From a virus (Duplodnaviria; Caudoviricetes), in the IMG/VR virus record IMGVR_UViG_3300003316_000301, positions 64,001 through 128,000 of that record: a stretch of 64,000 nt of DNA. One strand, written 5' to 3'. Below are positions 5,208 through 55,875 of the stretch, one piece after another. The position numbers and the translations under genes were made by a program. The stretch's first letter is position 1, and each line of letters begins with the position of its first letter. The notes beneath the pieces are model-generated. The model was not told where the DNA came from, did not search any database, and saw only the letters and a list, made by a program, of their open reading frames with translations.

Positions 5208-5536
5208 GGGTTCACTCCCAGCTTCTTGGCCATGAACATGCGCATGATCTGCATCTTCAGCTCGTCGGGGTACAGGTCCAGCGGAGTAGGACGCACAGCG
5301 GTGCAGCCCTCCTCGTAGCAGCGCTGCATGGGGGCGCTCAGAAAGCCGCCCTCCGGGCCCAGACGGTACGAGGTGACCCATTGGTGCTGAGCGTCCTCCA
5401 GGTCGCCCTGAGGCGCCTTGCGGAGCTGCTCGGGGGTGAGCGAGCGCACGTACTCCAGCTCGGGGTACTGGGCGATCCTGGCGTTACACAGAGGGCTCAT
5501 GCCGACGAAGAAGCCGTACTTGAAAACCCTTTTCAC
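5204..5536 (-). CDS. Hypothetical protein
   Basis: Coupled ORF, high-GC codon pattern. Confidence 0.7.
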   Translation of the reverse strand: MKRVFKYGFFVGMSPLCNARIAQYPELEYVRSLTPEQLRKAPQGDLEDAQHQWVTSYRLGPEGGFLSAPMQRCYEEGCTAVRPTPLDLYPDELKMQIMRMFMAKKLGVNP

Positions 5537-22229: not shown

Positions 22230-22256
22230 GAGGCCTCCTGGGGAGTCGATTGGCCT

Positions 22257-27443: not shown

Positions 27444-27929
27444 CTAGACGAGGGAGACGATCTCCTCGTCGGCAAGGCCCTCGCCGTCCCATCGGACGAA
27501 GGTCTTGCCCTTGTAGACCTTGAAGGTCGACGTGTCGGCCCCCGGCTCGGTCCACACCTTGAGCCGCTTGGCCTGGGTGAAGTCCTCGTGGATGGCCGTG
27601 ATCTCGCCGTCCCAGTTGTGCCCCGGCAGGTTGTCCCGCAGCGGGTAGAAGGTCTCGAACAGGTCGTTGTGCATGGAGACCCGGTCGTGCGAGGGGACGA
27701 GGGCGATACCCCGGACGACGTGCAGCGTGCCCTCGTCCGTCTCCTTGTCGAACTCGTCCAGCATGATCTTCAGCGGGAAGTACTCCGAGAAGACGTTCTC
27801 CGGGGTGGCGTACCTCTCCTGGTAGGACTTCAGCCGCCTCATCATGACCTCGGCGGCCTTCTTCAGCTCCTTCGCGCTCAGCGCCGGGGTGATGTTGATC
27901 GTGCCGCTGATGTGCCATTCAGTGCCCAT
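27444..27929 (-). CDS. Hypothetical protein, probable paralog of 29747..30232
   Basis: MGTEWHISGTINITPALS; leader 27934-27947. Confidence 0.75.
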   Translation of the reverse strand: MGTEWHISGTINITPALSAKELKKAAEVMMRRLKSYQERYATPENVFSEYFPLKIMLDEFDKETDEGTLHVVRGIALVPSHDRVSMHNDLFETFYPLRDNLPGHNWDGEITAIHEDFTQAKRLKVWTEPGADTSTFKVYKGKTFVRWDGEGLADEEIVSLV

Positions 27930-27958
27930 GGGACCTCCTGGGGAGTCGGGATGGTGGA

Positions 27959-28342
27959 TCAGATGATGAGGGCGGCCCTGAGGGCGCCCAGGCCGTCCGT
28001 GGAGGACTCCCGGACGATGCGCCGGGCCTCGGCCTTGCGCTTGGCGGCCTGACGGGCCTTGACGAACTCGCGCTCGTACACGGAGCCGTAGACGCCCTCG
28101 GGAAGCTCCTCGCGGAAGATGTGCGCCATGTCCGAGGAGATCATGCAGGCCATCTTCCAGGTCAGGCCCTCGATGTCCTCGATCACCGGCTCCTCGCCCT
28201 GCTTGCCGTTGGCGTACCAGGAACGGAGATCCTCGATCGCGAGGAGCTGGGCCCGCGCGGCCTTCGTGTTCCCCATCGCTGCTTCCAGCATCTCCTTGAC
28301 GAAGTCGTGCCGGTCGCGCTCGCTGTGGGCGAAGTTCTTCAT
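27959..28342 (-). CDS. Hypothetical protein
   Basis: Leader and promoter. Confidence 0.8.
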   Translation of the reverse strand: MKNFAHSERDRHDFVKEMLEAAMGNTKAARAQLLAIEDLRSWYANGKQGEEPVIEDIEGLTWKMACMISSDMAHIFREELPEGVYGSVYEREFVKARQAAKRKAEARRIVRESSTDGLGALRAALII

Positions 28343-28379
28343 GCGGGCCTCCTGAGGAGTCGGTTCCGGGGCTTCCCCC

Positions 28380-28420
28380 TGACAACGTCAAGGTTACTAC
28401 GGGAATTCCTGGGGCGTCAA
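28380..28420 (-). promoter_or_regulatory. Repeated promoter TTGACG-N18-TAACCT
   Basis: Spacer CTACGGGAATTCCTGGGG; TGACAACGTCA. Confidence 0.85.
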
Positions 28421-28776
28421 GCCCTCTCTTCGAACTCCTCGTGGAGCTGGGAGAGCTTCTCCGTGGGGATCCAGCAGTTCGAGAACGGAGCCCGGCTCCA
28501 GTCGTCGGCGGCCAGGGTGCACAGGCCTTCAGCGGCCACACGGGCCTTCTCCACGGCGTTCGCACGCTTCTGGCTCAGACCCTCCAGGCCCGCGTCCGGA
28601 GTGCGCACGAGGACCTTGGGGTCGCCGTACCGCTGGTAGTGCAGTTCGGCCCGCAAGTAGCGGTTCTCCCTGCTGACGATGAAGAAGATCACCGGGCACT
28701 TCAGGTGCTCGGCCAGCCGTCGGCCGTTGGTGATCCCCTTGGCCTTCAGGGCCTCGCGCAGCTCCGCCCCGGTCAT
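28417..28776 (-). CDS. Hypothetical protein
   Basis: MTGAELRE; ATGA overlap. Confidence 0.7.
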   Translation of the reverse strand: MTGAELREALKAKGITNGRRLAEHLKCPVIFFIVSRENRYLRAELHYQRYGDPKVLVRTPDAGLEGLSQKRANAVEKARVAAEGLCTLAADDWSRAPFSNCWIPTEKLSQLHEEFEERA

Positions 28777-29261
28777 CGCTTGCTCCACTGGATGCCGATG
28801 TTCAGGGCGTTCTCCGTGACGAACTTCCACAGGGCGTGACCACGCATCCAGTGCGGCCCCTCCCACTCCGGCGTGGGAACGACGTGCGTCGCGCTGATCT
28901 TGCCCTCGCCTGAGCGGACGGTCAGCTCGAAGACGGCACCAACGCCCGGGAACATGGGGTCCCGGGTGAGCGGCGGCTCGGGGCTGTCCTCGCTCGGGAC
29001 CTCAGCCTCCCAGATGAGCTGGTCGGTGGTCTCGAAGTTCAGCCCTCGGTAGGGGTCGTCCGCCGGGTTGGCGGAGATGTCGGAGTGCGAGGAGCCGTAG
29101 AGGTACGTACGGGCGTACCAGCGCTCCTCGCCCTCATCGCCCCACCAGACGTCCGAGACGTCTCTGCGGTCGCGGAGGTGCTCCTCCAGGACCGCCTGAG
29201 CGCTCCTCCAGTCGGTCCGGAAGCCCGGCTTGCCGTTGACGGTGAACAGGTAGATCTTCAT
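28773..29261 (-). CDS. Hypothetical protein
   Basis: Leader and promoter. Confidence 0.8.
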   Translation of the reverse strand: MKIYLFTVNGKPGFRTDWRSAQAVLEEHLRDRRDVSDVWWGDEGEERWYARTYLYGSSHSDISANPADDPYRGLNFETTDQLIWEAEVPSEDSPEPPLTRDPMFPGVGAVFELTVRSGEGKISATHVVPTPEWEGPHWMRGHALWKFVTENALNIGIQWSKR

Positions 29262-29750: not shown

Positions 29751-30232
29751 TCCGGCTCGCCGATCTTGACCGTGGTGACCTCGTTGTCCTGGACCTTGAT
29801 CTGCCAGGCCTCTCCCCCGCCCATGCCGGTCATGATGCCGTTGACCGTGTGGTCGAAGGTGAAGCCGTGCAGGAGGTCGTCCTCGGCGACGAGCTTGGCC
29901 TTCTCGGCGAAGATCCCGGCAGGCCTCAGGAAGTAGTCGATCACGTACCGGATCCAGGGCTCCAGGTCCCCGGCACCCTCCTGGCCGTCCCACTCCAGCA
30001 GGCCGGGCCCGTTCAGGCGCAGGCTGGCGTACAGGGTCGGCATGTCCTGGGCGGGCCGGTTCCAGTCGATCACGTCCGGGTGGGACGCGGTGAGGCTCTT
30101 GCGGATGTCCAGGGGTCCGTGCACGGTCGTCATGTGCCGGGCGTCCAGGAACAGGCGCAGGGCCTTGAACTCGGTCGGGTTCAGCGGCGGCTCGATGTGG
30201 AGCTGGCCCTTGTACTGTGCGTCGAATCCCAT
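29747..30232 (-). CDS. Hypothetical protein
   Basis: MGFDAQYKGQLHIEPPLN..WIRYVIDYFL..HTVNG. Confidence 0.8.
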   Translation of the reverse strand: MGFDAQYKGQLHIEPPLNPTEFKALRLFLDARHMTTVHGPLDIRKSLTASHPDVIDWNRPAQDMPTLYASLRLNGPGLLEWDGQEGAGDLEPWIRYVIDYFLRPAGIFAEKAKLVAEDDLLHGFTFDHTVNGIMTGMGGGEAWQIKVQDNEVTTVKIGEPE

Positions 30233-30234
30233 GG

Positions 30235-30585
30235 TCAGATGTCCTTCTGGGGGAACTGGTCGAGCAGGATCTTGAGGTCGTCCAGCAGGAGCTTCTTGCC
30301 CGGCGGCCCCGCGAGGGCCTGGATGTCCTGCTCCATGTTGTCCGCGACACGGGCCACACGGCTGGCGGGGTCGTAGCCCTCGGCCTCGCGCACCTTGGCG
30401 ATGTGCTCCACCTCGATGAGCACATCGGCCTCGTACGCCTTCACGAACGCGGTCACCCGGCGCCGGACGTCCTGGAGGATCTCTGTGCGGTCCATGGCCT
30501 TGGCCACGCGCTCGATGATCTCCTCCCCGTTCTCACGGGCCTTCTGGACGTCCGTCTGCTGGTAGTCGTCGTAGGTCTTCGCCAT
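30235..30585 (-). CDS. Hypothetical protein
   Basis: Leader 30590-30603. Confidence 0.75.
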   Translation of the reverse strand: MAKTYDDYQQTDVQKARENGEEIIERVAKAMDRTEILQDVRRRVTAFVKAYEADVLIEVEHIAKVREAEGYDPASRVARVADNMEQDIQALAGPPGKKLLLDDLKILLDQFPQKDI

Positions 30586-30669
30586 AGCTCCTCCTGGGGA
30601 GTCTCGGGGGTCTGAACGGCCGTACAGGGGGCGCCTGGGGTGAAGGCCCAGGAGCCCGCAGAGCGGCCG

Positions 30670-31347
30670 TCAGCGGGGCAGCAGGACGCCCTGGGTCTGG
30701 AGCACGGTCGCGGCCACGTCCACCGCGTCCTCGGTCCCGCTCACCACGGCCACGAGGGCGAGGTAGTAGAGGTGGCCCTCCATGCGGCGGGCGGCCTCCG
30801 GGTCGGTCTTCGCGGTCTCCCGGATCGTCCGCACGTGCTCGTCGGCGTCCTCCGGCGTCACCAGCGGCACGAAGGGGAACGCTCCGCGCTTCGGGTCGGT
30901 CTCGCCCGAGGGGGTCTCCACAGAGGCCTCCTCGGTCTCCTGCGGGGCCACCAGGTCCTCGCTCTCGGGAATGTCCGACCGGCGCGCGGGAGCCCCGGAG
31001 ACGGCCAGGAAGCTGTTGTCGGTCTTGCCGGTGTCCTCGTTCCAGCCCCACACGACGAAGTAGCCGACCGTCTTGAGGTCCTCCATCATGTCCGCCACGC
31101 GCTCCAGGCGGGCCTTCTCGCGCTCGGCCGCCTTGCGGGCCTGGACGCCCTTCAGCTCCCGGGAGACGCCCTCGTAGGAGACGCGGACGATCTTGCCGCC
31201 CTCGGTGTCGGACTGTCCCGGCCACTCGCGGACGATGTATCCCCCGTACCGGGTCTCGTGCGCGCCGTACGGGTTGTAGCCGAGTCGGCGGAGCTGTTTG
31301 GACACGGCGGATGCGTGGGTCCGCCCGGTGGTCTGGTGCTTGGCCAT
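30670..31347 (-). CDS. Hypothetical protein, repeat family related to 14887..15804
   Basis: ASAVSKQLRRLG..GYIV..IVRVSY..LKTVGY. Confidence 0.75.
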   Translation of the reverse strand: MAKHQTTGRTHASAVSKQLRRLGYNPYGAHETRYGGYIVREWPGQSDTEGGKIVRVSYEGVSRELKGVQARKAAEREKARLERVADMMEDLKTVGYFVVWGWNEDTGKTDNSFLAVSGAPARRSDIPESEDLVAPQETEEASVETPSGETDPKRGAFPFVPLVTPEDADEHVRTIRETAKTDPEAARRMEGHLYYLALVAVVSGTEDAVDVAATVLQTQGVLLPR

Positions 31348-31417
31348 ACGGCCCTCCTGCTGGTCTCTGGCGGGAAGCCGGGGCCCGTGAGGACCCCGGC
31401 GGGTAGGTACTGCTGGA

Positions 31418-32002
31418 TCACATGCCGATCGCGGCGCGGAGCAGGGAACGGAAGTCTCCCTGGGTCAGGCGTCCCGCCGTGTTGATGACCTCCAGCGTCC
31501 AGGAGAGGCCCTGGCGCTCGGCCTTCGCGATGCCCATGAAGTTGCCGGTGGCCAGCAGGGACGGCTGGATCATGGCGACCTTGTCAGAGCTGCCGCCGGT
31601 GGCGTCGTAGACCGAGACGCGCACGTTCTTGGCCTGGCCGAAGTCCGTGCCCTTCTTGAAGGCCACGAAGGCGAACAGGATCGAGGTGATGTTGTTCGGG
31701 ATCCGGGAGAAGTCGACGGTGATCACCTCGTCGTCACCGGCCTTCTTGCCCCGGTGCTCATCTCCCGAGTGCGTGATGGCGCCGGTCTCCGTCGGGTCCA
31801 GGTTGTCCAGACCCGCGTACATGACCGGGTCCTCGCCCTGCATCAGGACGGCGACGAGGTCCAGGTCCGTGCCGATGAAGTTCTTGATGGCTCCCAGGAC
31901 ACGACCGGAGCCGCCGGTGGACGTGTCCCAGGCCCCGCCGATCTGGAGCTTCTGGACACCGGTGAGGTCGTTGCGGCCGTCGTCCTTGGTGAGTACGTGC
32001 AT
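31418..32002 (-). CDS. terD: TerD-family stress protein
   Basis: GGAWD..TDLDL..ITHSGDEHRGKKAGDDEVITVDFSRIP..I. Confidence 0.85.
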   Translation of the reverse strand: MHVLTKDDGRNDLTGVQKLQIGGAWDTSTGGSGRVLGAIKNFIGTDLDLVAVLMQGEDPVMYAGLDNLDPTETGAITHSGDEHRGKKAGDDEVITVDFSRIPNNITSILFAFVAFKKGTDFGQAKNVRVSVYDATGGSSDKVAMIQPSLLATGNFMGIAKAERQGLSWTLEVINTAGRLTQGDFRSLLRAAIGM

Positions 32003-32070
32003 GAGTGCCTCCTGGGTGGTAAGTGTTCTCTGGCGGTGGCGGGGGCCGTGTGGCCCCCGCCGGGTGGGGA

Positions 32071-32973
32071 CTAGCCCCAGGGGAGTCCGTACTTCTCGGC
32101 GCAGATCGGACCGTAGCCCGCCGCCTCCGACTCCTCCTTGGTGAGCTGCTTGGTGCAGAAGACGCAGCGGTGGTACAGCTCGCCGAACTTCGCGGCCTGC
32201 TCCGCCGTGGCCTTCTTGTCCTCGGTCAGCTTCCGGAAGGGGCTCTGGCCGACGTAGACCCACTTCTCGGTCTCGTCGTCCCACTCACGGGCCGTGGTGT
32301 TGCCGGTCCGCTCGGAGACGATGACCTTGAAGTACGTCCCGTCGACCACGTAGACGCCCTCGGCCGGGATGTAGCGGGCCGGGGTCTCCGCCTTGCGCTG
32401 CTTGTCCTTGTACGGGGCCGCCTTGAGGTCCGTGATGTGCTTGGACGCGGTCTCGAAGGGGAGGTCGGCCAGATTGGCCAGGTCCAGGGTGAGGTCGTGC
32501 TCCCGCTCGGCCAGCAGCTTCTTCAGGAAGCCGAGCTGAGCCGGAGTGATCATCCGGGTGCTGGAGGTCCCCCTGGGGGCGACCGACAGGTCCAGCAGGG
32601 ACTTCATCGCGTCGATGGTCTCGGAGGCCTTCGACTTCTCGATCTCGTTCTGGGCCTGGGCCTGCTCGACGATCAGCCGGTGCTCCGGCGAGAGCAGGTG
32701 CAGCGGGATCCTGCGAGCGAGGGAGCAGACGTAGTTGGCCTGACGCGGACTGGCGGGGGTGAAGACCTCCTTGCCCTCCGCCCGGCCCTGCTTGCGGTCC
32801 GCGACGATGCGCTCGTGCTCGGCGACCTTGCGCTCGTAGGAGGCCGCGACCTGGCAGCAGAAGCCGGAGCCGTGCTCCTTCTTGCCGACAGCGGCGTGGT
32901 CCCGCAGGACGTCACGCATCATGGCGAGGGTGAAGGGGTCCAGCTTGCCGGTGCCGGGGAATTCGTAGGTCAC
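32071..32973 (-). CDS. DUF6011-domain protein
   Basis: C-terminal AAKFG..CVFCTKQLT.EES..AGYGPICAEK; PASPRQ / ITPAQ repeats. Confidence 0.75.
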   Translation of the reverse strand: MTYEFPGTGKLDPFTLAMMRDVLRDHAAVGKKEHGSGFCCQVAASYERKVAEHERIVADRKQGRAEGKEVFTPASPRQANYVCSLARRIPLHLLSPEHRLIVEQAQAQNEIEKSKASETIDAMKSLLDLSVAPRGTSSTRMITPAQLGFLKKLLAEREHDLTLDLANLADLPFETASKHITDLKAAPYKDKQRKAETPARYIPAEGVYVVDGTYFKVIVSERTGNTTAREWDDETEKWVYVGQSPFRKLTEDKKATAEQAAKFGELYHRCVFCTKQLTKEESEAAGYGPICAEKYGLPWG

Positions 32974-33002
32974 GGGGGCCTCCTGAGGAGTCGGTGTCGC
33001 CT

Positions 33003-33043
33003 TGACGCTGTCAAGGTTACTCCAAGGATCATTGGAGAGGCAA
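33003..33043 (-). promoter_or_regulatory. Repeated promoter TTGCCT-N18-TAACCT
   Basis: Spacer CTCCAAGGATCATTGGAG; TGACGCTGTCA. Confidence 0.85.
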
Positions 33044-33075
33044 GCCCCTCCCTGGCGGGATTTTTAAAAACGGGT

Positions 33076-33558
33076 CTAGCGGTTGCCGAACGCCACGTCC
33101 ATCAGCGCGGACAGGTCGTCCAGCGGCAGGGTGACGCTACGTCCGTCCTTGGACACGTCGTATCCGTCTCCCGGTGCCGGGGTGTAGCCGGGGTAGTTCC
33201 TCAGGTTCCGCCGGAGAAGGGTCAGCAGGCGCTGCGCGTGCAGCCGCTCCACCTCCTCCGAGGTCTCCTTGCGCTCGAAGTCGGCCCAGGGGCCGGAGAG
33301 CTTGCGGGGGTCCACGGCGACCCTCGTGAGGGACTCCTCGTCCTCCCCGGGACTGCTGACGATGTACGCCTTCAGGGACAGGTTCGCCCTGTAGCGCGTC
33401 TCGCCCTTGCCGGGCATGTGGCGCGTGCGGGTGGTGGTGTCCTCCACCCACTCGCCGGAGCCGTTGATGCGCCATCCAGGGGACAGGTCCACGATCTCGT
33501 AGCACCTGTCCCCAGGACCGACGTACCGTCCGCCGACTTCCAGGTCACTGCGCTTCAT
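33076..33558 (-). CDS. Hypothetical protein
   Basis: MKRSDLEVGGRY; GGAGG SD. Confidence 0.75.
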   Translation of the reverse strand: MKRSDLEVGGRYVGPGDRCYEIVDLSPGWRINGSGEWVEDTTTRTRHMPGKGETRYRANLSLKAYIVSSPGEDEESLTRVAVDPRKLSGPWADFERKETSEEVERLHAQRLLTLLRRNLRNYPGYTPAPGDGYDVSKDGRSVTLPLDDLSALMDVAFGNR

Positions 33559-33654: not shown

Positions 33655-34743
33655 TCAGCCCATGTAGGGCTTGATCAGCTCGTCGATGATGCCGACGGCC
33701 TTCACGGGCGCCTGGGTGTTCAGGGCCTCCTGGACCTTGTTCAGGAGCATCCGGAAGGACTTCATGATCTGTTCGGTCTCGACCATGTGAACCGCGTCCT
33801 TGCCGGACAGCTCCTTGGACAGGTCGTGGATCTTCTTCTTCGCCGCCTCGCTGGCCTTGTCGAACGCGGCCTTGGCGTCGGTGTACTGCTTGTCCGACAG
33901 GGAGAGGTCCCGCTCCGCCTCCCTGCGGACTTGGGCGATCTGGTCCTCCAGTTCGGCAACCTGCTTCTTCAGGCCGTCGATCTCAGCCGTACCAGCCGAC
34001 CCGGCGAAGTTCTCCCCGAGAACCGAGACGAGCAGTTCCAGCGCGTCATTGACGTCAGAGGGGAGGGCGGGGCTGTGCACGGGGGAGGTCTCCTGGGTCT
34101 CGGGGGCGGAGAGGACGGTTTCCGGGTTGTAGACGCCATGGCGGAAGCCCCGGTGCATGGCGAGCCCCTGCGGGCGCTTGGAGGTGAACTTCTTGCCCTG
34201 CTCCCAGCACTCGATGCAGTAGTACGTCTCGACCCCGTGGAGGTTCACGAGGAAGAGGCTCGACTGCGTCTGGCCCAGGAGCGCCGGGTCGAAGACCGGG
34301 ATCTCGGTCGGCAGGACGCGGACCTCCTTCACGGGCTCGGGCTCCGGCTGAGCGTCCACGAGTCCGCCCTGGGTCGCCTCTTCGGCCTTCTTCTTGGCCC
34401 GGTCCGCTTCGGCCTTCTTCTTGGCCTGAGCGGCCTCGAAGGCCTTGCGCTGTGCGTTGGCCGCCTGCGCCTTCTTCTCGCCCTCCGCCTCCAGCTCAGC
34501 GAGAAGAGCCTCGGTCTCTTCAGGCGTACGGGCCGGGCCCTCGCCGATGAGGTTGTACTGGCGGGCGTTCGAGCGGAACACCTTCATCGACTCGTCGTTG
34601 GGGTTCAGACCGATCGTGATCGCAACGCCGTCGGGCGCGCTGATCACGATCTTCTGGTTCCGGATCGAGACGTCCCAGTCCGCAGCCTTCGCGAGATCGA
34701 TCGCGTTCTGCACCTCAGCGGGTACGCGCTTGTTACCAGCCAT
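33655..34743 (-). CDS. Protein with HicA-like N-terminus, C2H2-type Zn finger and coiled coil
   Basis: AKAADWDVSIRNQKIVISAPDG..ITIG..P.D; YYCIEC..GLAMHRGFRH. Confidence 0.6.
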   Translation of the reverse strand: MAGNKRVPAEVQNAIDLAKAADWDVSIRNQKIVISAPDGVAITIGLNPNDESMKVFRSNARQYNLIGEGPARTPEETEALLAELEAEGEKKAQAANAQRKAFEAAQAKKKAEADRAKKKAEEATQGGLVDAQPEPEPVKEVRVLPTEIPVFDPALLGQTQSSLFLVNLHGVETYYCIECWEQGKKFTSKRPQGLAMHRGFRHGVYNPETVLSAPETQETSPVHSPALPSDVNDALELLVSVLGENFAGSAGTAEIDGLKKQVAELEDQIAQVRREAERDLSLSDKQYTDAKAAFDKASEAAKKKIHDLSKELSGKDAVHMVETEQIMKSFRMLLNKVQEALNTQAPVKAVGIIDELIKPYMG

Positions 34744-34780
34744 GTGGCCTCCTCGGGTCGGTTCTCTCTGGCAGGACAAG

Positions 34781-34809
34781 AACCTACTACCAAGGATTCC
34801 TGGAGTCAA
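34781..34809 (-). promoter_or_regulatory. Repeated promoter TTGACT-N17-TAGGTT
   Basis: Spacer core CCAAGGATTCCTGG. Confidence 0.8.
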
Positions 34810-37800
34810 GCTCCCAGCTTCACCGGCTCCCAGCTACCTCCGATGCAGAGCATGATCTCCTTGACGTCCCAGGTCGCAGGCTCGACCTTGGGCAGGAACC
34901 GCACGTGGCTGTTGTGGTACTTCAGCGTGATGTGCGGAGTCCATCCATGATCATTGCGGACCTTGTACCCGTGCTCCACGAGGAGTTCGTTCAGGTCGTG
35001 CCGGATCGCCCCTCCCCCGGGGATGTCCACGGCGGCCCACAGGACATGGTTGCCCGGGTTGGTGAAGGTACCGGCTCCGCCGACGCTGGCCTTGAAGGGC
35101 TTCTGCGTACGGGCCCACGCACGCACGAGGGAGTCCAGCCCGGCCACCTGGTCCTTGGAGTGCTCCGTCTTGCTCCCGAGGTAGCACAGGGTCACGTGGA
35201 GGGCCTCCAGGGGCTCCCCGTCCTCCACCAGCAGTTTCCGGCCGATGCTCTTGGGCGGCACGATGGCGATCATGATGCCGTCGCCGTCTGTTCCCGAGGC
35301 CTGGGAGAACAGGCCGGACAAGGTCCTCCTCGCCGTCGTGGGGACCCAGGGGCTCGGTCCGGTGGGCGAGGAGTTCTTCCACTCCCGCAGGCGCTCCCAG
35401 GGCCGGTCAGGGTGCTGGTCGAGGTACTTCTCCACGACGTTCGAGAGATCGAAGAGCCCCTTGCCGTTACCAGTGAAGGCGTCCGAGCGGTGGGTGTGCA
35501 GCTCCTCCCAGAGGTTGGCCGCCATGCGCTGGCGCTCCTCCTCCGGCAGCCTGCCGATCGCCTCGATCTCGTGGAGCAGGGTCTCGGCATAGTCCCAGTA
35601 GGACTCCGGCAGGTGGGTGGCGCTCCAGTCCTTCGGGACCTCCAGGGGGTGCACGGCCCAGGTGTCGTCGGTGACGTCGTAAGCCGCGTACGGCTTGAGG
35701 TTCCTGATGTCCCAGGCCCGGGGGTTCACGAAGAACGTCCGGTCGAAGGGGCCCACCTTGCGGCCGTCGGCCAGCTCGAAAAAGTAATTGTCGACATTCG
35801 CCTTGGACCACAGGGCGTCCGTCATCTGCTGGGCGATCTCGGCATCGTCCAGCTCCTCGTGATCCGGATTCTGGTCGCGGAACTCGGTCCAGTCGATGCC
35901 GATCAGGACGTCGAAGTCCCCGTTGAAGGGCTGCCACTTGGCCGCCTCGGACCCGGCGAAGTACACCTTGGCCCAGGTCTCCCAGCCGTCGTACAGGTGC
36001 CCCAGGACGCGCCCTACGCGGTCCAGGATGTCCTGGCGGACCTCCGGGCGCAGGTGGTCGCCCTCGAAGATGCGCTGGTCGTTCTGGGCACTGTTGGGGC
36101 CCCAGTACCGGCCCTCGGGGAGCCAGGTGTGGGTGTGGGTGTAGACCGGGTGGTCCCCGATCGTGGTGTTGTCCTCGTGGCCGTGCGAGCCGTCGTCGTG
36201 AGCCCAGCCGTCCATGGTGGTCATCTGGACCCGGTGGCCCTCGTTGTCGGTCCCCATGGTTCCCGGCGGCGTGTAGGCGGCCGTCGTGGACGAGGAAGAC
36301 CCCGAGTCTCCCCCGGCGTCTCCCGAGTCGTCAGAGCCGCCCTGAAGGGCTTCCGGGACCCCTCCCATCCACCGGTTCTGGGTGTGCTTGCGCTTCTCCT
36401 CGTCGGCCTCCATGGCCCCTTGATGCTGGGCGGGTGCCTGGAAGTGCTCGTCGAACGTTCTCAGGGCGTTGTGGTGACCGTAGTGGCCCAGCAGCCCCCG
36501 GAACGTGTCAACGAAGTCCTGACCATGGCCGCCCGAGGTGAGCAGGTGGGCCATCTCGTGCAGTACAGCGTGGTTGTGGAAGTGGTTCGAACCCAGGTGG
36601 AGGCGAAGCTGCTCGTCCGGCTCCCCCAGCTCGTCCTCTCGCACGACGTAGCTGTGGTTCGGACGCAAGGTCGGCCTGACGGCCAGGTCGGCCGCCTGCG
36701 GATGCCCGTGGTCGTGCAGGATCTGCCGGGCGTGGTCCCCGGCCTCCTCCAGATCTCCGTAGCGCTGGAGATCGTGACCGCCCTCCGTCATGGCCTTCTG
36801 AGCCGCGTAGACGTTCGTGGTCCACGCATCCCTCGCCGCTGTCGAGCGCACCCCCTCCGGGTCGGAGAGATCCGGCCTGGTCAGACAGACGAACTGAGGG
36901 CTCTTCCGGGTGAACAGCCGCATCTGCCGGTGCGGGACCTCGGTCTCGGCCCGGTGGCGGACCTCCGGCCAGGACTCGGCGAAGCCGGGGTGCAGCTCGC
37001 CGGACTCGTGCATCTCGTCGATCTGGGGCGCGGTGAACCACCGGTGCCCGGCCGCCTCGTGGGAGTGCGAGCCGTCCTCGGAGGGTGTGAACTTCTCCGG
37101 GGTGTCGGCGATCACCGTGTGGTACGACCAGCCCCCGTGGTCGTTGGAGTGCGTGCCGATGTGGCCGAGCGGCGGCAGACCTCCCAGCTCCTCGTCACCC
37201 TCTCGGGTACCAGCCTCGAAAGGGGTCTCACCCCTCTCGATCGCTCCGCCGGGGATGGACCAGGTACCCGGGTGGTCGACGTGCCGCGAGCGCTGCTGGA
37301 GCAGGTAGTGGTGGGTCCCCTCCAGGTCCGTGTGGCGCACCAGGAGTCCAGCCGCTCCGCGCGCTCCCCAGTGGTCGTGTCCCTGGGCGCAGGTGACCTC
37401 GTCGGGGTCCTTCGCGGCGTGCACCCGGATGGGGTTGTCGAAGGTGTGGGTGACAGGCCCGCGTGCCGAGTGCCAGGTGATCCCCCGCACGTTCATGGGG
37501 GCGTTGCGCTTGAGGGGCACCTCCCGTTCGGGGTCCATGTCCCAGTCCCGTACGGCCCGGTCCTCCAGCACGTACGAGTTGTCCTCGATGTGGTGACGCT
37601 CGGGAGTGTCGGCGTGCAGGACCACGGCTGTCTGCCCGGGGCTGAGCCGGTCGCCGTTGAGGTGGTGGTAGCCGGGATCGTCGGTCCAGTGCACGCCGAC
37701 GTTGCCCTTGGTCAGGGTGTGCTGGAGGACGGCTCGGGCCCGCTCATCCACCGGGAGCTTCTCGTTGTGCGCCGGGTGGCTGCTGGGAAGGTCCAGGGCG

Positions 37801-39071
37801 AGGTGGCGGTACACCCGGGACTGGAGCTTGGGGTGCCACTGGTCCCACATACGCTTGTGGAAACCGTCGTCCTCCTCGTACTGGCTCTCCCCGACCTGCC
37901 GGGGCAGGCCAAAGCTCACTCCCGCCGTACGGGGCTCCAGGGGCTTGGCGGAGAAGCCGATCTCGCTCGGCTTGATCTCCGAGGGGATGTGCTCGCCGGT
38001 GGCCTCCGCCGGATGCCGGGCGGGCGCCGGAGCACCCTTCCCCGCGAGGCCGAACATGTTCCGGCTCACCCGCACGGGGACGTGATCCATCCCGAGGACC
38101 CTGGCCGCCCGCAGCCGGTGGTTGCCCTCACCGAGGTAGGCCTCCCCCGTCTTGGGGTGGTACTGGAGCATCAGGGGCTCCATGTAGCCCTTCTCGGCGA
38201 AGTGGGTCGCCACCTCCCGCGCGTGGTCCCCGTCGGTCTCCTGAGTGGCGTACGGAGCCAGCTCGTGTGTGGGCACCATCTCCACGTTCGGATGACCGGC
38301 GGTGTGCACCCGCACCCGGATGCCGTGCTGGTTCAGAAACCGGGAGGGGATGTCCCCTCCGTCGTACCTCGCTTCCAGGTCGGCCTGCTTGCGCACGGGG
38401 CTGGAGAAGTCGTACCGGTTGAAGGGCGTTCCGGTGTGGAACTTCATGCCCTCCTCGGAATACTTCTGCCCCGAGGACCAGTGGTCATTGCCCTCTCTCC
38501 ACGAGACCCCCGTGACCTTCATCGGGGCCCCGGGACGGACCGGCAGGCGCCAGGAGATCTCGGGGTCGTACTTCTCCCCGGGCCGCATGTTCTCGTGCCA
38601 GTGGTGCTTGTCCGGCGGGGTCTCGGCGTGCATGACGATGTGGGTCGTCGGGCATCCGCCGTGACCAGACTCCTCGTCGCCGCAGTTGTGTTTGCGCTCG
38701 TGGTCGTTGTACGTCCCCCAGCCGGTCTGGTTGGCGTACTCGGCGGCCTTGTGGGGGCTCGGGCTCCAGTAGTTGCCGAGGCCGCCGGTGGAGCCCTCCT
38801 CGCCCTCCGGGCCCTGGTTCTGGGCGTTCTGCTTGCGGACCTCGCTCAGCAGCAGGTGTGCCTTGGCCGCCGGGGGCTGGTTGGGGTCGTGGACGAACTT
38901 GTGGACCTCCGGCCGCAGGACCACGGACAGGCCACGGTGGACCCCCTGGTCCCGGGTGTAGCCGCTCTCGTCCGGCCGTCCCATGGGCTGCGCGTGGTAC
39001 TGGCTCTCCTCGGCGGGCGCCGCCGTCTTGTGGGCCGCCGTGGTGAACAGCTCGGTCAGGGTCTGGGACAT
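34806..39071 (-). CDS. Multi-enzyme (polyvalent) protein, ~1421 aa: ART-like x2, ParB/Srx, Nudix, HExxH peptidase, Pol-beta NTase, 2H phosphoesterase
   Basis: GGAGGT SD at MSQTLTELF; EGNHRLRAARVLG; Nudix box GGAIERGETPFEAGTREGDEELGG; HEMAH; FAGS..GDFDVL; HVTL/HITL. Confidence 0.85.
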   Translation of the reverse strand: MSQTLTELFTTAAHKTAAPAEESQYHAQPMGRPDESGYTRDQGVHRGLSVVLRPEVHKFVHDPNQPPAAKAHLLLSEVRKQNAQNQGPEGEEGSTGGLGNYWSPSPHKAAEYANQTGWGTYNDHERKHNCGDEESGHGGCPTTHIVMHAETPPDKHHWHENMRPGEKYDPEISWRLPVRPGAPMKVTGVSWREGNDHWSSGQKYSEEGMKFHTGTPFNRYDFSSPVRKQADLEARYDGGDIPSRFLNQHGIRVRVHTAGHPNVEMVPTHELAPYATQETDGDHAREVATHFAEKGYMEPLMLQYHPKTGEAYLGEGNHRLRAARVLGMDHVPVRVSRNMFGLAGKGAPAPARHPAEATGEHIPSEIKPSEIGFSAKPLEPRTAGVSFGLPRQVGESQYEEDDGFHKRMWDQWHPKLQSRVYRHLALDLPSSHPAHNEKLPVDERARAVLQHTLTKGNVGVHWTDDPGYHHLNGDRLSPGQTAVVLHADTPERHHIEDNSYVLEDRAVRDWDMDPEREVPLKRNAPMNVRGITWHSARGPVTHTFDNPIRVHAAKDPDEVTCAQGHDHWGARGAAGLLVRHTDLEGTHHYLLQQRSRHVDHPGTWSIPGGAIERGETPFEAGTREGDEELGGLPPLGHIGTHSNDHGGWSYHTVIADTPEKFTPSEDGSHSHEAAGHRWFTAPQIDEMHESGELHPGFAESWPEVRHRAETEVPHRQMRLFTRKSPQFVCLTRPDLSDPEGVRSTAARDAWTTNVYAAQKAMTEGGHDLQRYGDLEEAGDHARQILHDHGHPQAADLAVRPTLRPNHSYVVREDELGEPDEQLRLHLGSNHFHNHAVLHEMAHLLTSGGHGQDFVDTFRGLLGHYGHHNALRTFDEHFQAPAQHQGAMEADEEKRKHTQNRWMGGVPEALQGGSDDSGDAGGDSGSSSSTTAAYTPPGTMGTDNEGHRVQMTTMDGWAHDDGSHGHEDNTTIGDHPVYTHTHTWLPEGRYWGPNSAQNDQRIFEGDHLRPEVRQDILDRVGRVLGHLYDGWETWAKVYFAGSEAAKWQPFNGDFDVLIGIDWTEFRDQNPDHEELDDAEIAQQMTDALWSKANVDNYFFELADGRKVGPFDRTFFVNPRAWDIRNLKPYAAYDVTDDTWAVHPLEVPKDWSATHLPESYWDYAETLLHEIEAIGRLPEEERQRMAANLWEELHTHRSDAFTGNGKGLFDLSNVVEKYLDQHPDRPWERLREWKNSSPTGPSPWVPTTARRTLSGLFSQASGTDGDGIMIAIVPPKSIGRKLLVEDGEPLEALHVTLCYLGSKTEHSKDQVAGLDSLVRAWARTQKPFKASVGGAGTFTNPGNHVLWAAVDIPGGGAIRHDLNELLVEHGYKVRNDHGWTPHITLKYHNSHVRFLPKVEPATWDVKEIMLCIGGSWEPVKLGA

Positions 39072-39116
39072 GGCCACCTCCACCCCTTCGGGCTTGTACT
39101 GCACCCAGAGACAGCA

Positions 39117-39144
39117 GAAGGCCCCCGAGTGAACGGGGGCCTTC
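39117..39144 (-). terminator. Hairpin between terminase and polyvalent gene
   Basis: gaaggcccccg-agtgaa-cgggggccttc. Confidence 0.55.
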
Positions 39145-39286
39145 CAGCACAGTGAAGCGAGATCCCGCCAGAGATCCGACTCAGGAGGCCGCTCGCCGAG
39201 GAGCAGACCAATCACTGCGTACGTGGCCGGGTGAAACGGCCGATATCGAAAGCATGCCATGATCGCAAGCTCTTCGGCAAGGTCGC

Positions 39287-41356
39287 TCACATGCGATTAC
39301 GCCGACCACGGGAACGGGCGCTCTCGTGGAACATGTCCTGCCGGGCTCCCCGGGCCCGGCCGAATCCCCCGAGCTGACGGAAGACGTCCTGGTCAGTCCT
39401 GGGACCACCGGAGAACTCGTCTCCCCGGCTCATGCCCGGGAAGGGGTGGATACCGCTCTGCATGGCGCCCTGGGGCCGCATGGCGCCCAGCTCGGAACGC
39501 AGGGAGATGATCTGGTCCCCGATCAGGGCCATGACGCACTCCATCATCGCGTCGGCGACGTCCTTCGTCTGGACCGGCCCGGAGTCCGGGTGGTCCACCA
39601 CGCCGTTCTTCTCCTGGAGGAACCTCAGCTCCAGTTCGGCCTGCTCGTAGTAGGGCGCGTGGACCCAGCCCATGTTCACGGCGGTCTTGAAGATCTCCGC
39701 CCGGGTCCAGTTGTGCTGGCGGGTCGCGGTCTTCTCGTAGACCTGGGTGACCTTGGGCAGACCGGACTGCCGGGACCTCTTGGCCAGACGCTGGATGACC
39801 TGGGCCGAGTTGAACTGGTCGAAGGTCATCTCGGTCGGCATGAACGGCGAGAGGATGTTGCCCCAGATCCACTCCTCCACCTGGTCGTAGTCGACGATGT
39901 GATCCGTGAAGTCCTGCGGCCGGAAGTGGTGGATCCGGTCGAACACCACATGGAGCCGGTTGTCCGGGCCCGGCTCGGCGTGGGCGCAGGCCAGACCGAA
40001 GTTCGCGTTGGACTTCGAGGGGTCTCCGTGAGCCTTGTAATCCAGATCCATCCGGCCCCGGATCTGCATGCCCAGCTCCGGCTGGCCGTAGAACTCCTGA
40101 CGGGCGTGCCAGGGATGGAAGATCTCCTTGACCTTCTGCTCGTTGAGGTAGGCGTCCAGAGCCACGGCGAAGTGGCTGCGGCGCTCGACCTTGAAGGTGT
40201 CGGGGTTGGCCTGCTCCTCGCGGGCCATCTGGTCGTCGTACGCCTGAATGGCTCCCCGCAGGGGCTGGAAGTAGAGGGTCGGCTTGCCCTCGTACTCCCC
40301 GAGGTCGCCGGTGTAGCCCTCGGGGAACACCGGGATCGTGTGCGCGATCTCCCAGTCCTTGTAGATGTCCCAGCTCGCGAGCTGGATCATCAGCATCTCG
40401 GGGTAGACCGGCTCCCCGTTCTCGTCCTCCATGATCGAGTTCTGGTAGTTCACGTAGAACTGCCCGAGCATCTGCCAGGGGCTGGACGGCTCGATGATGA
40501 ACGCGTCCATGCCGAACTGGTCCAGGGACGGCTTGGCCGCCGCGTAGACCTCCTCGGCCGACCGGTTGGCGCCGGAGGCGACCACGTGGGCCATCTCGTC
40601 CCAGGCCTGGCAGAACGAGGTCGGACCTCGTCCGGCCATCAGCGTGGACTCCTTCGGGACCAGCTCGAAGGTGGCCATGTTGATGTCGTCAGGGTTCATG
40701 CCCTGCTCGGCCCGCTTCCTCATCCGCAGGAAGTCGTTCGGGGCGTAGATCGAGAGCTTCTCCGCCTGGAGGGGCGCACGGATGTACGGGGCGAAGCAGG
40801 CAGAGCCGGTGATGTAGTTCACCGCGTCCTGCCACACCGTGGCCTTGGCCTGGTCCCGCTTTCCGGCGAACACCATGGCCACGAGCTTCTTGTCCCGGTC
40901 CACGCCGTAGTAGCGCTGCGGGTCGCCCTTGGCCATGTAGTTCCACAGCACGTAGGCCATGGACAGGCCGGAGATGTGGCCCTTACCGGCACGGCGGCCC
41001 ATGACCAGGAGGGTCTCCCGGAACCACTTCCGGCCCTCCTTGCGGAGCTTGGCCATCCTGCGCCGGACACCGGGCACGACTCCGTTGTTGCCGGTCTGCC
41101 GGAAGCTCTCCTCCCACTCGTCGATGACCGCGTGGTCGTACTCCGTCAGCAGGTCGAGCCGCAGGAAGATGACCTTCAGCAGTGTGGCCTGGCGCGGGTA
41201 CATGTTCGGCCGGTCCAGGTAGTCCGCACTGAGCACGAAGGTGATCGGGTCGGGTACCGGAAGGCCGGTGAAGAGCTGGAAGAGCTTGTCCGGCCCGAAG
41301 GCGGGCGGCAGCGTGGAGACGCGCGGCTTGGACCGGACCACAGTCTGGGCGGCCAT
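39287..41356 (-). CDS. terL: Terminase large subunit
   Basis: YPRQ, Walker A MGRRAGKG, Walker B AWDEMAH, SSP, nuclease HGDPS..TFDQFNS..TKDVADA. Confidence 0.9.
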   Translation of the reverse strand: MAAQTVVRSKPRVSTLPPAFGPDKLFQLFTGLPVPDPITFVLSADYLDRPNMYPRQATLLKVIFLRLDLLTEYDHAVIDEWEESFRQTGNNGVVPGVRRRMAKLRKEGRKWFRETLLVMGRRAGKGHISGLSMAYVLWNYMAKGDPQRYYGVDRDKKLVAMVFAGKRDQAKATVWQDAVNYITGSACFAPYIRAPLQAEKLSIYAPNDFLRMRKRAEQGMNPDDINMATFELVPKESTLMAGRGPTSFCQAWDEMAHVVASGANRSAEEVYAAAKPSLDQFGMDAFIIEPSSPWQMLGQFYVNYQNSIMEDENGEPVYPEMLMIQLASWDIYKDWEIAHTIPVFPEGYTGDLGEYEGKPTLYFQPLRGAIQAYDDQMAREEQANPDTFKVERRSHFAVALDAYLNEQKVKEIFHPWHARQEFYGQPELGMQIRGRMDLDYKAHGDPSKSNANFGLACAHAEPGPDNRLHVVFDRIHHFRPQDFTDHIVDYDQVEEWIWGNILSPFMPTEMTFDQFNSAQVIQRLAKRSRQSGLPKVTQVYEKTATRQHNWTRAEIFKTAVNMGWVHAPYYEQAELELRFLQEKNGVVDHPDSGPVQTKDVADAMMECVMALIGDQIISLRSELGAMRPQGAMQSGIHPFPGMSRGDEFSGGPRTDQDVFRQLGGFGRARGARQDMFHESARSRGRRNRM

Positions 41357-43854: not shown

Positions 43855-44510
43855 GGATCCTCTGCCGTTTCAAGTGCCTTGGGCTTTCCGCCTGACATCA
43901 GGGCCCGGAGCACCGGGTGCTGGGCCAGGGCCGCGCCGTACGCCTGGAGGTGCTCGATGGGGATGAACTGCTGAGCGACCTCCATATACGCCACGAGGGC
44001 CTGCTGCCAGGCCGCCGAGTCGAGACCCTCCTCCGTGGAGGACTCGATCGCGTGCTGCATCCGGATCGCGGTCAGCAGCTCGGACATGGACGGCTTCAGC
44101 TCGCCCCGGGCGAGGCGCTCCATGCCCCGCTGGACGATCAGCTCGTTCACCGTGGCGTAGTTGGCCAGCGAGGTCGCGTGGTTCTCGATGTCGCGACCGA
44201 TCTGCTTGGCCCGCTCCTCCACCAGCGCCCGTTCAGCCGTCGGGCCGATCGGCATGTGACCGTTGTTCACGTGGTCACGGATGGACTGGTACGAGGGGTT
44301 CGGCAGGCGCCCCGGCTCCCGGTCGGCCACCACGGCGGCGATCCGCGAGTACGAGTGCTGCTCCAGGATCGCCTGCTCGATCTCCATGCGGTACGGGCTC
44401 ATGCAGGTCCGGCACTGAGGCACCCGCTTCATCGGGTACTTCCGGCCGTTGACCTCCACCATGAGGACCGAGCCCGGACGGCCCTCCGGCAGCGCCCTAG
44501 CTTCCGTCAT
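43848..44510 (-). CDS. Zn-finger/HTH protein, candidate terminase small subunit
   Basis: CRTCMSPYRMEIEQAI..SYSRIA..SIRDH..H; lies upstream of terL. Confidence 0.5.
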   Translation of the reverse strand: MTEARALPEGRPGSVLMVEVNGRKYPMKRVPQCRTCMSPYRMEIEQAILEQHSYSRIAAVVADREPGRLPNPSYQSIRDHVNNGHMPIGPTAERALVEERAKQIGRDIENHATSLANYATVNELIVQRGMERLARGELKPSMSELLTAIRMQHAIESSTEEGLDSAAWQQALVAYMEVAQQFIPIEHLQAYGAALAQHPVLRALMSGGKPKALETAEDPT

Positions 44511-54889: not shown

Positions 54890-55735
54890 TCAGGAACTGA
54901 GGGAACTGAGGAACTCGGTGAACGCCTGGCGGGCGATCTCCGAACTGGGCTCGATCTCCGTGGAGAAGAACAGCACCGGCCTCTCGCGGACGTAGTCCAT
55001 CATGAACGGCTGGTCTGACACCGACGTCACGCCGATGCCCATCTCCGGGTACGAGCCCTGTCGTGCGGCTTCGACCGCCAGGAGGCTCTGCCACTGCCGG
55101 AGGGTGTCCTCGTCCTGGACGAAGCTCTTGGTCCTCCAGGCGTAGTAGCTGTAGTCCCAGCTCTCTGCCTTTCGACGCCTCTGATCTTGCCGGAAGGCCT
55201 TGACGCTGTCAACCTCTTCTTCGTCGAGACTGACGTACCCCCAGTCTTCCAGCACATCGTCCGAGGTCACGGGCTGTCCGAGGCGCTGAGAGCGCTCGGC
55301 GGCCTCCCGGTGAGCCCGGCGCTTGAGGTCCTCCTCGGTGTAGTCGTCGAGGAAGACCTCACCCTTCTTGGTGCGGTCGTACGCCTCCCGGGTGACCGGG
55401 TCCAGGAGCTGCTTGAAGACGTACGTGAGCCGGGTGGAGGACTGGCCGTCCAGGGCCACATAGGCCTCCCGCAGCTCCTTCTTGGTGGCCCGCCAGTCCA
55501 CCCCCAGCTCCCGGTAGTAGCCGTTCACGTCGTGGCAGACGCGCTCGACCGGCACCAGGGACATGGAGGTAGACCAGCGGTCCGGACCCCAGCCCAGACG
55601 GGCGGGGCGCTCGTAGCAGAGCACCTCGCCCGCGTCCTGCCCCTTGCGCATGGCCTCCACGGTCTCGGCCGTCGGCAGCACCTCGGCGTACTGGCCGAGG
55701 ATGCCCGCCAGGTCCAGGTCGGGTCGGGCGCCCAT
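54890..55735 (-). CDS. J-domain-like protein lacking HPD
   Basis: NGYYRELGV..ATKKELREAY..L.DPVTREAYD. Confidence 0.65.
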   Translation of the reverse strand: MGARPDLDLAGILGQYAEVLPTAETVEAMRKGQDAGEVLCYERPARLGWGPDRWSTSMSLVPVERVCHDVNGYYRELGVDWRATKKELREAYVALDGQSSTRLTYVFKQLLDPVTREAYDRTKKGEVFLDDYTEEDLKRRAHREAAERSQRLGQPVTSDDVLEDWGYVSLDEEEVDSVKAFRQDQRRRKAESWDYSYYAWRTKSFVQDEDTLRQWQSLLAVEAARQGSYPEMGIGVTSVSDQPFMMDYVRERPVLFFSTEIEPSSEIARQAFTEFLSSLSS

Positions 55736-55875
55736 CAGTCCTCCGTGGGTTCCTCGCCCTCCCGCTCGATGTCCCGGACGTCCTGCCGGGTGAGCGGGGT
55801 GGCTGACGCGATCTTGCGGACGGTCTCGCCGTCCTCAGTGATGACCTGGCCGGTGCCGGTCTTCTGAAGGGCCAC
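55735..55875 (-). CDS. Small protein (46 aa)
   Basis: Not in ORF track; TAGGAGG SD; MALQKTGTGQVITEDGETVRKIAS...; TGATG overlap. Confidence 0.6.
   Translation of the reverse strand: MALQKTGTGQVITEDGETVRKIASATPLTRQDVRDIEREGEEPTED

Follow-up and report, generated by a model that had tools for sequence, protein, structure and literature searches.

The gene described here lies on the minus strand of a 64,000-nucleotide window, bases 64001-128000 of the 155,979-bp virus record IMGVR_UViG_3300003316_000301, which CheckV rates as complete. The genome is 67% GC, carries nearly all of its genes on the minus strand, and holds portal, terminase and tail genes. The open reading frame (ORF) in question occupies window positions 34806..39290, and its most likely start is the ATG at 39071, giving a protein of 1421 amino acids (aa). 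This start is preferred to the GTG at 39290 because GGAGG sits 6 nt upstream of it, homologues begin with M-x-x-TLxxLF, and the GC content of third codon positions drops to 0.73 in the upstream extension against 0.90 for the whole ORF. The product is a chain of enzyme-like domains whose borders, or seams, carry a short alanine-centred peptide. These seam motifs are probably cleavage sites of the phage's capsid-maturation protease, in a cargo polyprotein that would be packaged into the head and injected.

The predicted order along the chain is an N-terminal leader, an ADP-ribosyltransferase (ART)-like domain (D1), a ParB-like domain, a second ART-like domain (D3), a NUDIX hydrolase, an HExxH zincin, a nucleotidyltransferase-like domain and a 2H phosphoesterase (Table 1).

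Table 1. Features of the polyprotein gene and its upstream neighbourhood. Coordinates are window positions; residues (res) are numbered from the Met at window 39071; arrows mark presumed cuts; pLDDT, predicted local distance difference test.
Feature	Coordinates	Strand	Basis
Whole gene, predicted polyvalent cargo polyprotein, 1421 aa	34806..39071 (including stop codon)	(-)	ORF, ribosome-binding site, homologue starts, third-position GC
N-terminal leader MSQTLTELF, then tandem seams TTAA-H-KTAA (res 1-18)	39018..39071	(-)	pLDDT <50, res 1-22
D1, tentatively ART-like (res 19-230), ends PVRKQA↓D	38382..39017	(-)	paralogy with D3; hRG..W[ST]..E read in sequence
ParB/sulfiredoxin-like domain (res 260-379)	37935..38294	(-)	Pfam, PHROG, Foldseek
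Seam PRTAG (res 380-384)	37920..37934	(-)	pLDDT <50, res 380-404; kept in orthologues
D3, second tentatively ART-like domain (res 384-552), ends PIRVHA↓AK	37416..37922	(-)	BLAST paralogy with D1 via homologues
NUDIX hydrolase module (res 555-741), ends QMRLFTRK...VRSTAA	36849..37409	(-)	Pfam, PHROG, Nudix box
Seam RSTAA (res 742-746)	36834..36848	(-)	BLAST break-points 742-757; low pLDDT 694-745
HExxH zincin module (res 747-927, HEMAH), then Gly/Ser/Asp-rich tail	36291..36833	(-)	HExxH read in sequence
Seam STTAA (res 928-932)	36276..36290	(-)	BLAST match starts cluster at 926-937
Nucleotidyltransferase-like domain (res 933-1243)	35343..36275	(-)	confident AlphaFold domain; G-S..GDFD read in sequence
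Seam before 2H, PTTA↓RR-TLSGLF-SQA↓S (res 1244-1259), internal leader copy	35295..35342	(-)	pLDDT <50
2H phosphoesterase, LigT-like (res 1260-1421)	34809..35294	(-)	Pfam, Foldseek, VIA
Large terminase subunit, directly upstream of the polyprotein gene	39287..41356	(-)	tblastn
12-bp GC-rich hairpin, between terminase stop and polyprotein start	39116..39145	(-)	perfect; GGAAGGCCCCCG..CGGGGGCCUUCU; no U-tail

D1 and D3 are paralogues within one protein, and both end in P-[V/I]-R-x-x-A. Their assignment to the ART fold is tentative and draws on sequence and modelled structure: Foldseek returns weak matches to pertussis S1 and Rhs ARTs, and PF18760 (ART-PolyVal) is present in the homologues P0026 and P0027. 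The ParB-like domain follows a 29-aa connector containing the non-conserved peptide VHTAG; it matches Pfam ParB_N at E=0.075, PHROG ParB families down to 6e-5 and Foldseek ParB/Srx entries at E=0.02-0.1. The AlphaFold model of the N-terminal half is mediocre (mean pLDDT 56), and its Foldseek rows (ParB/Srx, ART) are weak. The NUDIX module matches Pfam PF00293 at 4.3e-12, above the cut-off, and PHROG 1198 at 1e-15, and the Nudix box G-x5-E-x7-RE-x2-EE-x-G is legible in GGAIERGETPFEAGTREGDEELG with Gly at the first hydrophobic position, placing the module in the NUDIX family. The zincin module has no Pfam match at E<=1 and a weak SprT-like Atlas lead (score 0.89).

For the nucleotidyltransferase-like domain there is an Atlas lead to PF01909 (score 0.92) and a weak VIA match to 1ylq (Z=5.0), and solo homologues occur in Streptomyces phages of the BRock group. 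A stretch of the class 'YFAG SQAA QW' was considered as a linker and rejected, being a conserved stretch inside this domain. The 2H domain matches Pfam PF13563 (2_5_RNA_ligase2) at 4.8e-12, Foldseek LigT/TT0787 at 1e-6 and, by VIA, 5h7f with Z=17.0 and a root-mean-square deviation of 2.6 over 154 residues. Its two H-x-T motifs (HVTL and HITL) place it in the 2H superfamily, and VIA also matches it to viral 2',5'-phosphodiesterases and the phage nuclease Acb1 (Z=8.8), which counters the cyclic-oligonucleotide-based antiphage signalling system (CBASS). The polyprotein as a whole is unusually rich in histidine (7.4%).

This protein is a textbook example of the 'polyvalent proteins' defined by Iyer, Burroughs, Anand, de Souza and Aravind (2017), who predicted delivery with the DNA and proteolytic release of the domains (PMC5512222). 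As in that class, which joins 2-15 unrelated domains, many unrelated enzymatic domains share one phage polypeptide, and the ParB-like, NUDIX, 2H, zincin and ART repertoire is typical. NUDIX and 2H pass Pfam cut-offs and the ParB-like match is weak; the HExxH, nucleotidyltransferase-like and two ART-like modules rest on sequence, fold or Atlas leads. The mosaic architectures typical of the class are seen in 71 homologues of 800-2179 aa, which differ in the sets and orders of GNAT, ART-PolyVal (PF18760), SprT, ParB, Zn-ribbon, NUDIX and 2H modules. As to virion genes, the gene lies directly downstream of the large terminase gene and ~60 kb from the portal gene, and homologues of its 2H domain occur in fusion with portal or MuF domains (P0066, P0069, P0071). 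Among 2H-containing genes of Arthrobacter phages, annotation varies, with some records labelled capsid maturation protease or MuF fusion.

Ten candidate seam peptides had been listed from the sequence: FTTAA at residue 9, HKTAA at 14, RKQAD at 227, VHTAG at 255, PRTAG at 380, VHAAK at 550, RSTAA at 742, STTAA at 928, PTTAR at 1244 and FSQAS at 1255. All ten are present in the minus-strand ORF at the coordinates claimed for them in this sequence-only reading. They lie in or beside low-confidence AlphaFold segments (1-22, 227-236, 380-404, 554-588, 694-745 and 1237-1260, from two models) and coincide with break-points of BLAST similarity to homologues. The seam consensus is (R)-[K/R/H/T]-[T/Q, sometimes A/H/K]-A-[A/G/S]. 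Across collinear orthologues the alanine of RKQA↓D is kept in 14 of the 15 aligned rows listed and that of VHA↓AK is kept with H, Q or R at the presumed P2 position; taken together, the residue before the conserved alanine varies at these two seams among Q, K, R, N, E and H. PRTAG (as RTAG, RTAA, HTAA or KQAA) and STTAA are mostly kept in orthologues, and VPTTA↓RR is retained in nearly all homologues.

The motif is strongly over-represented. Within the polyprotein, [KRHST][TQ]A[AGS] occurs 7 times against 0.73 expected, a count reached in 0 of 5000 composition-preserving shuffles, and TA[AG] occurs 6 times against 1.2 expected (P=0.0016). The motif was defined after seeing the data, and the tests on homologues therefore carry more weight. 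In the 71 homologues, [KRH][TQ]A[AGS] is observed 148 times against 25.5 expected, and among the other orders of the four positions just the overlapping one, [KRH][TQ][AGS]A, is comparably frequent.

Placement is as telling as number. When sites are grouped by the 12 residues that follow them, the module beginning 'PAEESQ..' (ART-like D1) is found behind 8 unrelated left-hand neighbours, with the motif exactly at the junction each time. The nucleotidyltransferase-like module 'YxPPGTMGTD' occurs in 6 different left contexts with the motif always at the seam, and the modules 'EDxDDPGLIHRG' and VQDGDDIPSRFL (ParB module) occur in 3 left contexts each, again with the motif always at the junction. 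Internal BLAST matches begin within 10 residues of a site in 17.2% of cases, where 300 randomisations gave 5.3% (maximum 7.3%). The sites show synonymous codon variation, and a bias to ACG for Thr before GCN is seen also at non-virion sites. A cause at the DNA level, such as a conserved nucleotide word or a recombination site, is thus unlikely, and selection on the sites, judged from codon usage, acts at the level of protein.

Seams can be preceded by a second element. TLTELFTTAA at the N-terminus and TLSGLFSQAS ahead of the 2H domain are copies of TLxxLF followed, after 0-4 residues, by [KR]TA[AGS]. This element occurs 31 times in homologues, at N-termini and before four different modules, so that the duplicated leader noted from the sequence proves to be a recurring element of the family. 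It opens nearly all closer family members whichever module comes next, in the conserved form M-x(1-6)-[TL]L[TS]xLF-x-[KT]xA[AGS], and in most of them it also precedes 2H; three other modules are preceded by it as well. A third 'LF..KTA' context, QMRLFTRKTA↓YAPPG, ends the NUDIX module in orthologues without the zincin. Elsewhere in this genome the whole element occurs in one other protein only, after the head-protease domain, and in mycobacteriophage Alice the 1236-aa gp81, two genes before the portal, begins MSDFGLFEAAAD. On sequence grounds the element could be an address tag, or a longer and stronger version of the site. The tandem TTAA-H-KTAA at the N-terminus looks like a scar left by module loss, since in P0006 and P0008 a Zn-ribbon lies between the same two seams, accompanied in P0006 by a ParB-like module.

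Beyond the polyprotein, the motif is concentrated in the head module of the genome. Genes g1-g42, which include the portal, a protease fusion, large neighbours and some tail genes, hold 18 sites against 4.7 expected, whereas genes outside g1-g42 and the polyprotein gene hold 8 against 8.6 expected, with no excess. The same distribution recurs in the first 50 kb of the Alice genome, where gp75-gp92 carry 17 sites against 2.4 expected and the early genes gp1-gp74 carry 2 against 2.3; the Alice sites are in gp75 (ParB-like), gp81, gp82, gp89 (1271 aa) and gp90 (1511 aa). Motif enrichment is therefore specific to the head module in two phages. These counts also bear on the idea that the motif is a chance product of Ala/Thr-rich linkers in a high-GC genome. 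The base composition, the richness of the protein in Ala, Gly and Thr, and the post hoc definition of the motif would favour such an effect, but it is very improbable: no composition-preserving shuffle reaches the observed count, non-virion proteins of the same genome lack any excess, other orders of the four residue classes are much rarer apart from the overlapping one, and the result is replicated in Alice.

Alice belongs to the group to which this phage is related. In tblastn the terminase matches those of Cluster C mycobacteriophages with 33% identity, covering 92% of the query (E=6e-85), and the portal, encoded outside the window at genome 35972-38089, shares 40.6% identity with Cluster C portals; by these similarities, the phage is an uncultured relative of Bixzunavirus-type (Cluster C mycobacteriophage) myoviruses. 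In Alice (NC_028986), the gp75 'ParB-like protein' (27514-29223) has the seams LHTAAD and MQTAAV ahead of an ART-like module, IYRGISV, and gp81 (29790-33500) shares the 'YPH..G-RTAG' Zn-ribbon end with the polyprotein family. These features imply that Cluster C mycobacteriophages carry counterparts of the polyprotein next to the portal.

Two further virion-module proteins of the present genome, g29 (genome 26339-30127) and g7 (5190-5993), match Pfam Arr-ms, the rifampin ADP-ribosyltransferase family, with E-values just above the cut-off (1.6e-5 and 7.8e-6, respectively). g7 opens with a short leader ending in RTAA at residues 17-20, and g29 shares a 'WVHHTFxEP..HTA' domain end with the polyprotein family.

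The candidate protease is itself the N-terminal domain of a variable polyprotein, the 916-aa g21 (genome 19527-22277, outside the window; gp90 in Alice). g21 matches PHROG 18299, 'head maturation protease', at E=2.7e-23, and its homologue in Gordonia phage Pupper is annotated as a capsid maturation protease. In Alice the gene order gp90, gp91 and gp92 (major head protein) reads as protease, scaffold and major capsid, and the same order is found here as g21, g20 and g18, the N-terminus of g18 resembling that of Alice gp92. H68, H73 and S126, the last within T-S-M-G, are invariant in 22 homologues of the protease domain. Pfam has no match to this domain and found just DUF7178 downstream; neither phmmer nor a 22-sequence profile returned anything from the PDB, and hhalign against HK97 gp4 gave a probability of 0.18, aligning only TSMGC with GMSVGF.

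The seam motif directly follows this domain. Past the domain end g21 reads RGLQTAAM, joined by a leader copy, KLLTDLFVTAAE, and in Alice gp90 KTAG is found at residue 219. Searching 1.8 billion representatives returned 2609 relatives, the best 150 of which are 249-2422 aa long. Among 254 homologues, 180 (71%) carry x-[ATVQ]-A-[SAG] 6-28 residues after the conserved PADPTA domain end; for random windows the figure is 15%. These copies have the consensus K-[T/A]-A-[S/A]-K, are often in tandem (RTAS-KTAA) and are followed by unrelated modules.

The conserved copy at the end of the protease domain bears on whether the motif is cut at all. It could instead be an uncut linker or seam element, conserved because it aids shuffling or docking (with TLxxLF as a short helix), so that the product would work as one multi-enzyme chain. 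Several polyvalent proteins, namely N4 vRNAP, ArdC and TraC1, are transferred uncut (PMC5512222). Several homologues keep TLxxLF ahead of 2H with no TA[AGS] that can be recognised, hinting at a binding role, and the tandem TTAA-H-KTAA resembles a recombination scar at seams. A four-residue element is, however, too short for homologous recombination, and its codons vary. An invariant alanine with basic flanks is not expected of a passive linker; nor is its recurrence in unrelated proteins of the head module of a second phage, with a portal just 40% identical, or at the C-terminal edge of a protease domain in so large a share of homologues. An uncut element is accordingly rather unlikely.

The identity of the cutting enzyme is a separate matter. 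The motif might be cut by another protease, either the polyprotein's own or a related HExxH zincin or a host protease, in the cytoplasm or after injection. T-A-[AGS] fits the small-residue rule of type I signal peptidase at positions -3 and -1, which counts in favour of a host enzyme. The polyprotein has an HExxH module, as do 22 of 64 family members, in which sites are more frequent (3.3 per 1000 aa, against 1.8 in members without it), and Iyer et al. proposed autoprocessing by built-in metallopeptidases in a text that names no junction motif and does not contain the word 'linker' (PMC5512222). Against this, HExxH is absent from 42 of the 64 family members and from 249 of 258 protease-fusion proteins, which keep the motif at 1.8-2.6 sites per 1000 aa, so that self-processing by the protein's own zincin does not fit. 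The best-conserved copy stands at the end of the putative serine-type head-protease domain, enrichment is limited to head-module proteins in both phages, and no hydrophobic stretch resembling a signal peptide precedes the sites. Cutting by another protease is unlikely overall, with a zincin acting in trans or a host enzyme as its possible forms.

The head protease thus stays the favoured reader of the seams. The sequence-only reading had proposed a protease-processed polyprotein that releases single enzymes inside the head. The reading is upheld in part. Its main idea is supported by the motif's presence at seams regardless of neighbours, by its confinement to virion-module proteins, and by the conserved copy directly after the head-protease domain; these lines of support are computational and independent, and the processing itself is a prediction. 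The same reading placed an Ala motif at nearly every linker, which holds for the other seams and fails for VHTAG, and it cited RKIAS in a 46-aa ORF (window 55735-55875, minus strand; ..ETVRKIASATPL..), which finds no support: Ile stands where the seam motif has Thr or Gln, the instance is single, and nothing else ties that ORF to the system.

Several observations weigh against cleavage by the head protease. VHTAG is replaced by DTEG, HTDG or IVGG in collinear orthologues and lies shortly before the ParB-like Pfam match, where the model is of middling confidence; it probably does not mark a junction. The motif is loose at the presumed P2 and P1' positions, and shared ancestry inflates the counts across homologues. 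Neither the major capsid protein nor the scaffold-like protein carries the motif, a few sites are found in tail proteins, and the two in the basic tail of g16 belong to AKKTAA repeats of low complexity. The polyprotein gene is ~60 kb from the portal and protease genes, adjoining the terminase gene near replication genes, and the protease assignment rests on one PHROG family, gene order and the annotation of others. Ahead of 2H, TLxxLF is retained even where TA[AGS] has degenerated into AKK or AAK, and part of the signal may therefore have another function. In the open-access literature searched, no report was found of cleavage, packaging or ejection of the polyprotein or its relatives, and no paper names the motif or gives cleavage specificity or virion proteomics for Cluster C/Bixzunavirus phages.

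Prohead-protease processing of packaged proteins is established for T4 and for phiKZ-like phages. In T4, the internal proteins IPI-III and Alt carry a capsid-targeting sequence and are cut by the gp21 prohead protease at [L/I]-x-E. The polyprotein resembles them in its short conserved N-terminal leader followed by a cleavage-type motif, in its enzyme effectors, which include an ADP-ribosyltransferase among the T4 proteins and predicted ART-like domains here, and in packaging and injection, which are predicted for it. It differs in that T4 cargo consists of separate one-site genes, whereas the present chain is divided by seven or eight seams. For the T4 rule [LIVM]-x-E there is no enrichment, either in the family (1252 against 1120 expected) or in the proteome (672 against 599), and the presumed P1 residue is Ala, not Glu. 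Three other junction motifs of phage polyproteins, G[ML]RS, an Arg-rich peptide ending in [AG]Q, and LSSG, show no enrichment here either, and such codes appear to be specific to a lineage. The T4 precedent invoked by the sequence-only reading therefore stands as an analogy and does not extend to the cleavage rule.

SPN3US gp245 and phiKZ gp175 are reportedly ejection or inner-body proteins with several internal cuts by a prohead protease at A/S/G-x-E. Like the polyprotein, these are large proteins packaged in the head, with several internal sites and one motif common to many head proteins. Unlike it, their motif is said to end in Glu, they belong to another lineage and host, and they are not obviously chains of swappable enzymes.

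A closer parallel in residue type comes from herpesvirus pUL26 assemblin, which has Ala at P1 in both its release site (YLQA-T) and its maturation site (VQA-S) (PMC4498786). In both systems the protease domain is N-terminal, and directly behind it comes a site, putative in the phage, that has Ala at P1 and a small P1' residue and recurs farther downstream, and in the phage family this release-site layout is seen in the 180 of 254 protease-fusion homologues counted above. The likeness is one of sequence layout, and the C-terminal partner differs, being scaffold in the herpesvirus and variable enzyme cargo in the phage. Relative to the polyvalent proteins as first described, the present family differs in having a peptide at every seam, in lacking a peptidase module in most relatives, and in using a site that matches the copy at the head-protease end. 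Compared with known processing, the predicted system would differ in three respects: Ala rather than Glu at the presumed P1, a site at every seam of swappable enzymes, and a protease itself fused to cargo.

In the proposed mechanism, the polyprotein would be made late, possibly by co-transcription with the upstream terminase gene, and taken up into the prohead, possibly through its M-x-x-TLxxLF leader. There the phage's own capsid-maturation protease, the N-terminal domain of g21, would read the seams and split the chain into seven or eight individual enzymes, the most likely point of cutting being just behind the near-invariant Ala; the bond is placed there by analogy with the herpesvirus release site. 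Leaving the capsid along with the DNA, the enzymes would then act on the host as infection begins. Of these, 2H and NUDIX may remove nucleotide signals of host defence, and the ART-like, ParB-like and nucleotidyltransferase-like enzymes would modify host targets.

A site of the same kind at every module border would allow modules to be gained, lost or swapped without disturbing processing, which would explain the many architectures among relatives. That the gene grew by fusion of formerly separate internal-protein genes, as the sequence-only reading also held, is borne out in part: module gain and loss at seams is clear, and solo 2H and GNAT genes exist in Alice (PMC5512222; also seen in the Alice annotation here). 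A search for shorter forms around the 2H domain gave mostly contig-end fragments that still had the upstream domain, a result compatible with either the presence or the absence of solo leader-2H genes.

More tentatively, it is possible that an actinobacterial myovirus lineage, comprising Cluster C mycobacteriophages, Gordonia and Rhodococcus relatives and many ~150-kb Streptomyces phages, shares a cleavage code of approximately K/R-T/Q-A↓S/A. The head protease would then be the first module of a cargo polyprotein and free itself at a herpesvirus-like Ala↓Ser release site, and any enzyme flanked by the code would be plug-in capsid cargo. Such a code would amount to a cassette system for loading and swapping injected counter-defence enzymes, and Ala-at-P1 specificity would be common to phage and herpesvirus capsid proteases.

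Polyvalent phage proteins are regarded as multi-tools that are injected to counter the defences of the host, and their loading and cutting have so far been mostly conjecture. The present analysis offers a sequence-level prediction of the bonds, the enzyme and the proteins concerned, which extends to phages that are in culture and widely distributed, namely Alice, Bxz1 and other Cluster C mycobacteriophages. If it is right, the packaged 'ejectome' of this lineage could be read straight from genomes, the specificity of a phage head protease would be linked to that of herpesvirus assemblin, and a short tag would be available for loading foreign proteins into capsids.

The host is probably a streptomycete, since Streptomyces and Kitasatospora assemblies contain ~150-kb contigs with homologues of the phage's proteins. 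The protease fusion has close relatives (P0100-P0152) on contigs of 150-158 kb, one of them labelled a plasmid, that come from assemblies of cultured strains of Streptomyces and Kitasatospora. In culture collections, phages of this type may be maintained as extrachromosomal elements or as carrier-state infections.

A promoter and terminator scan found no canonical terminator between the terminase and polyprotein genes. The hairpin in this interval (Table 1) is conserved, as its 3' half is the source of a conserved 'GAFCC' in over-called N-terminal extensions of several homologues, and it could be an actinobacterial-type terminator or a regulatory structure. Just 5' of the polyprotein ATG (window 39072-39090, minus strand), AAGGGGTGGAGGTGGC recurs exactly, over 14-18 nt, upstream of three virion-module genes: g36 (genome 40476-40493), the protease fusion g21 (22235-22249) and g39 (44469-44482). 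It is a shared strong ribosome-binding region, and these genes may belong to the same expression class. The next gene, which encodes 384 aa (33655-34809, minus strand), has no phage homologue in the INPHARED set and a weak DUF4230 match only. It overlaps the polyprotein stop by 4 nt (34806-34809), suggesting translational coupling.

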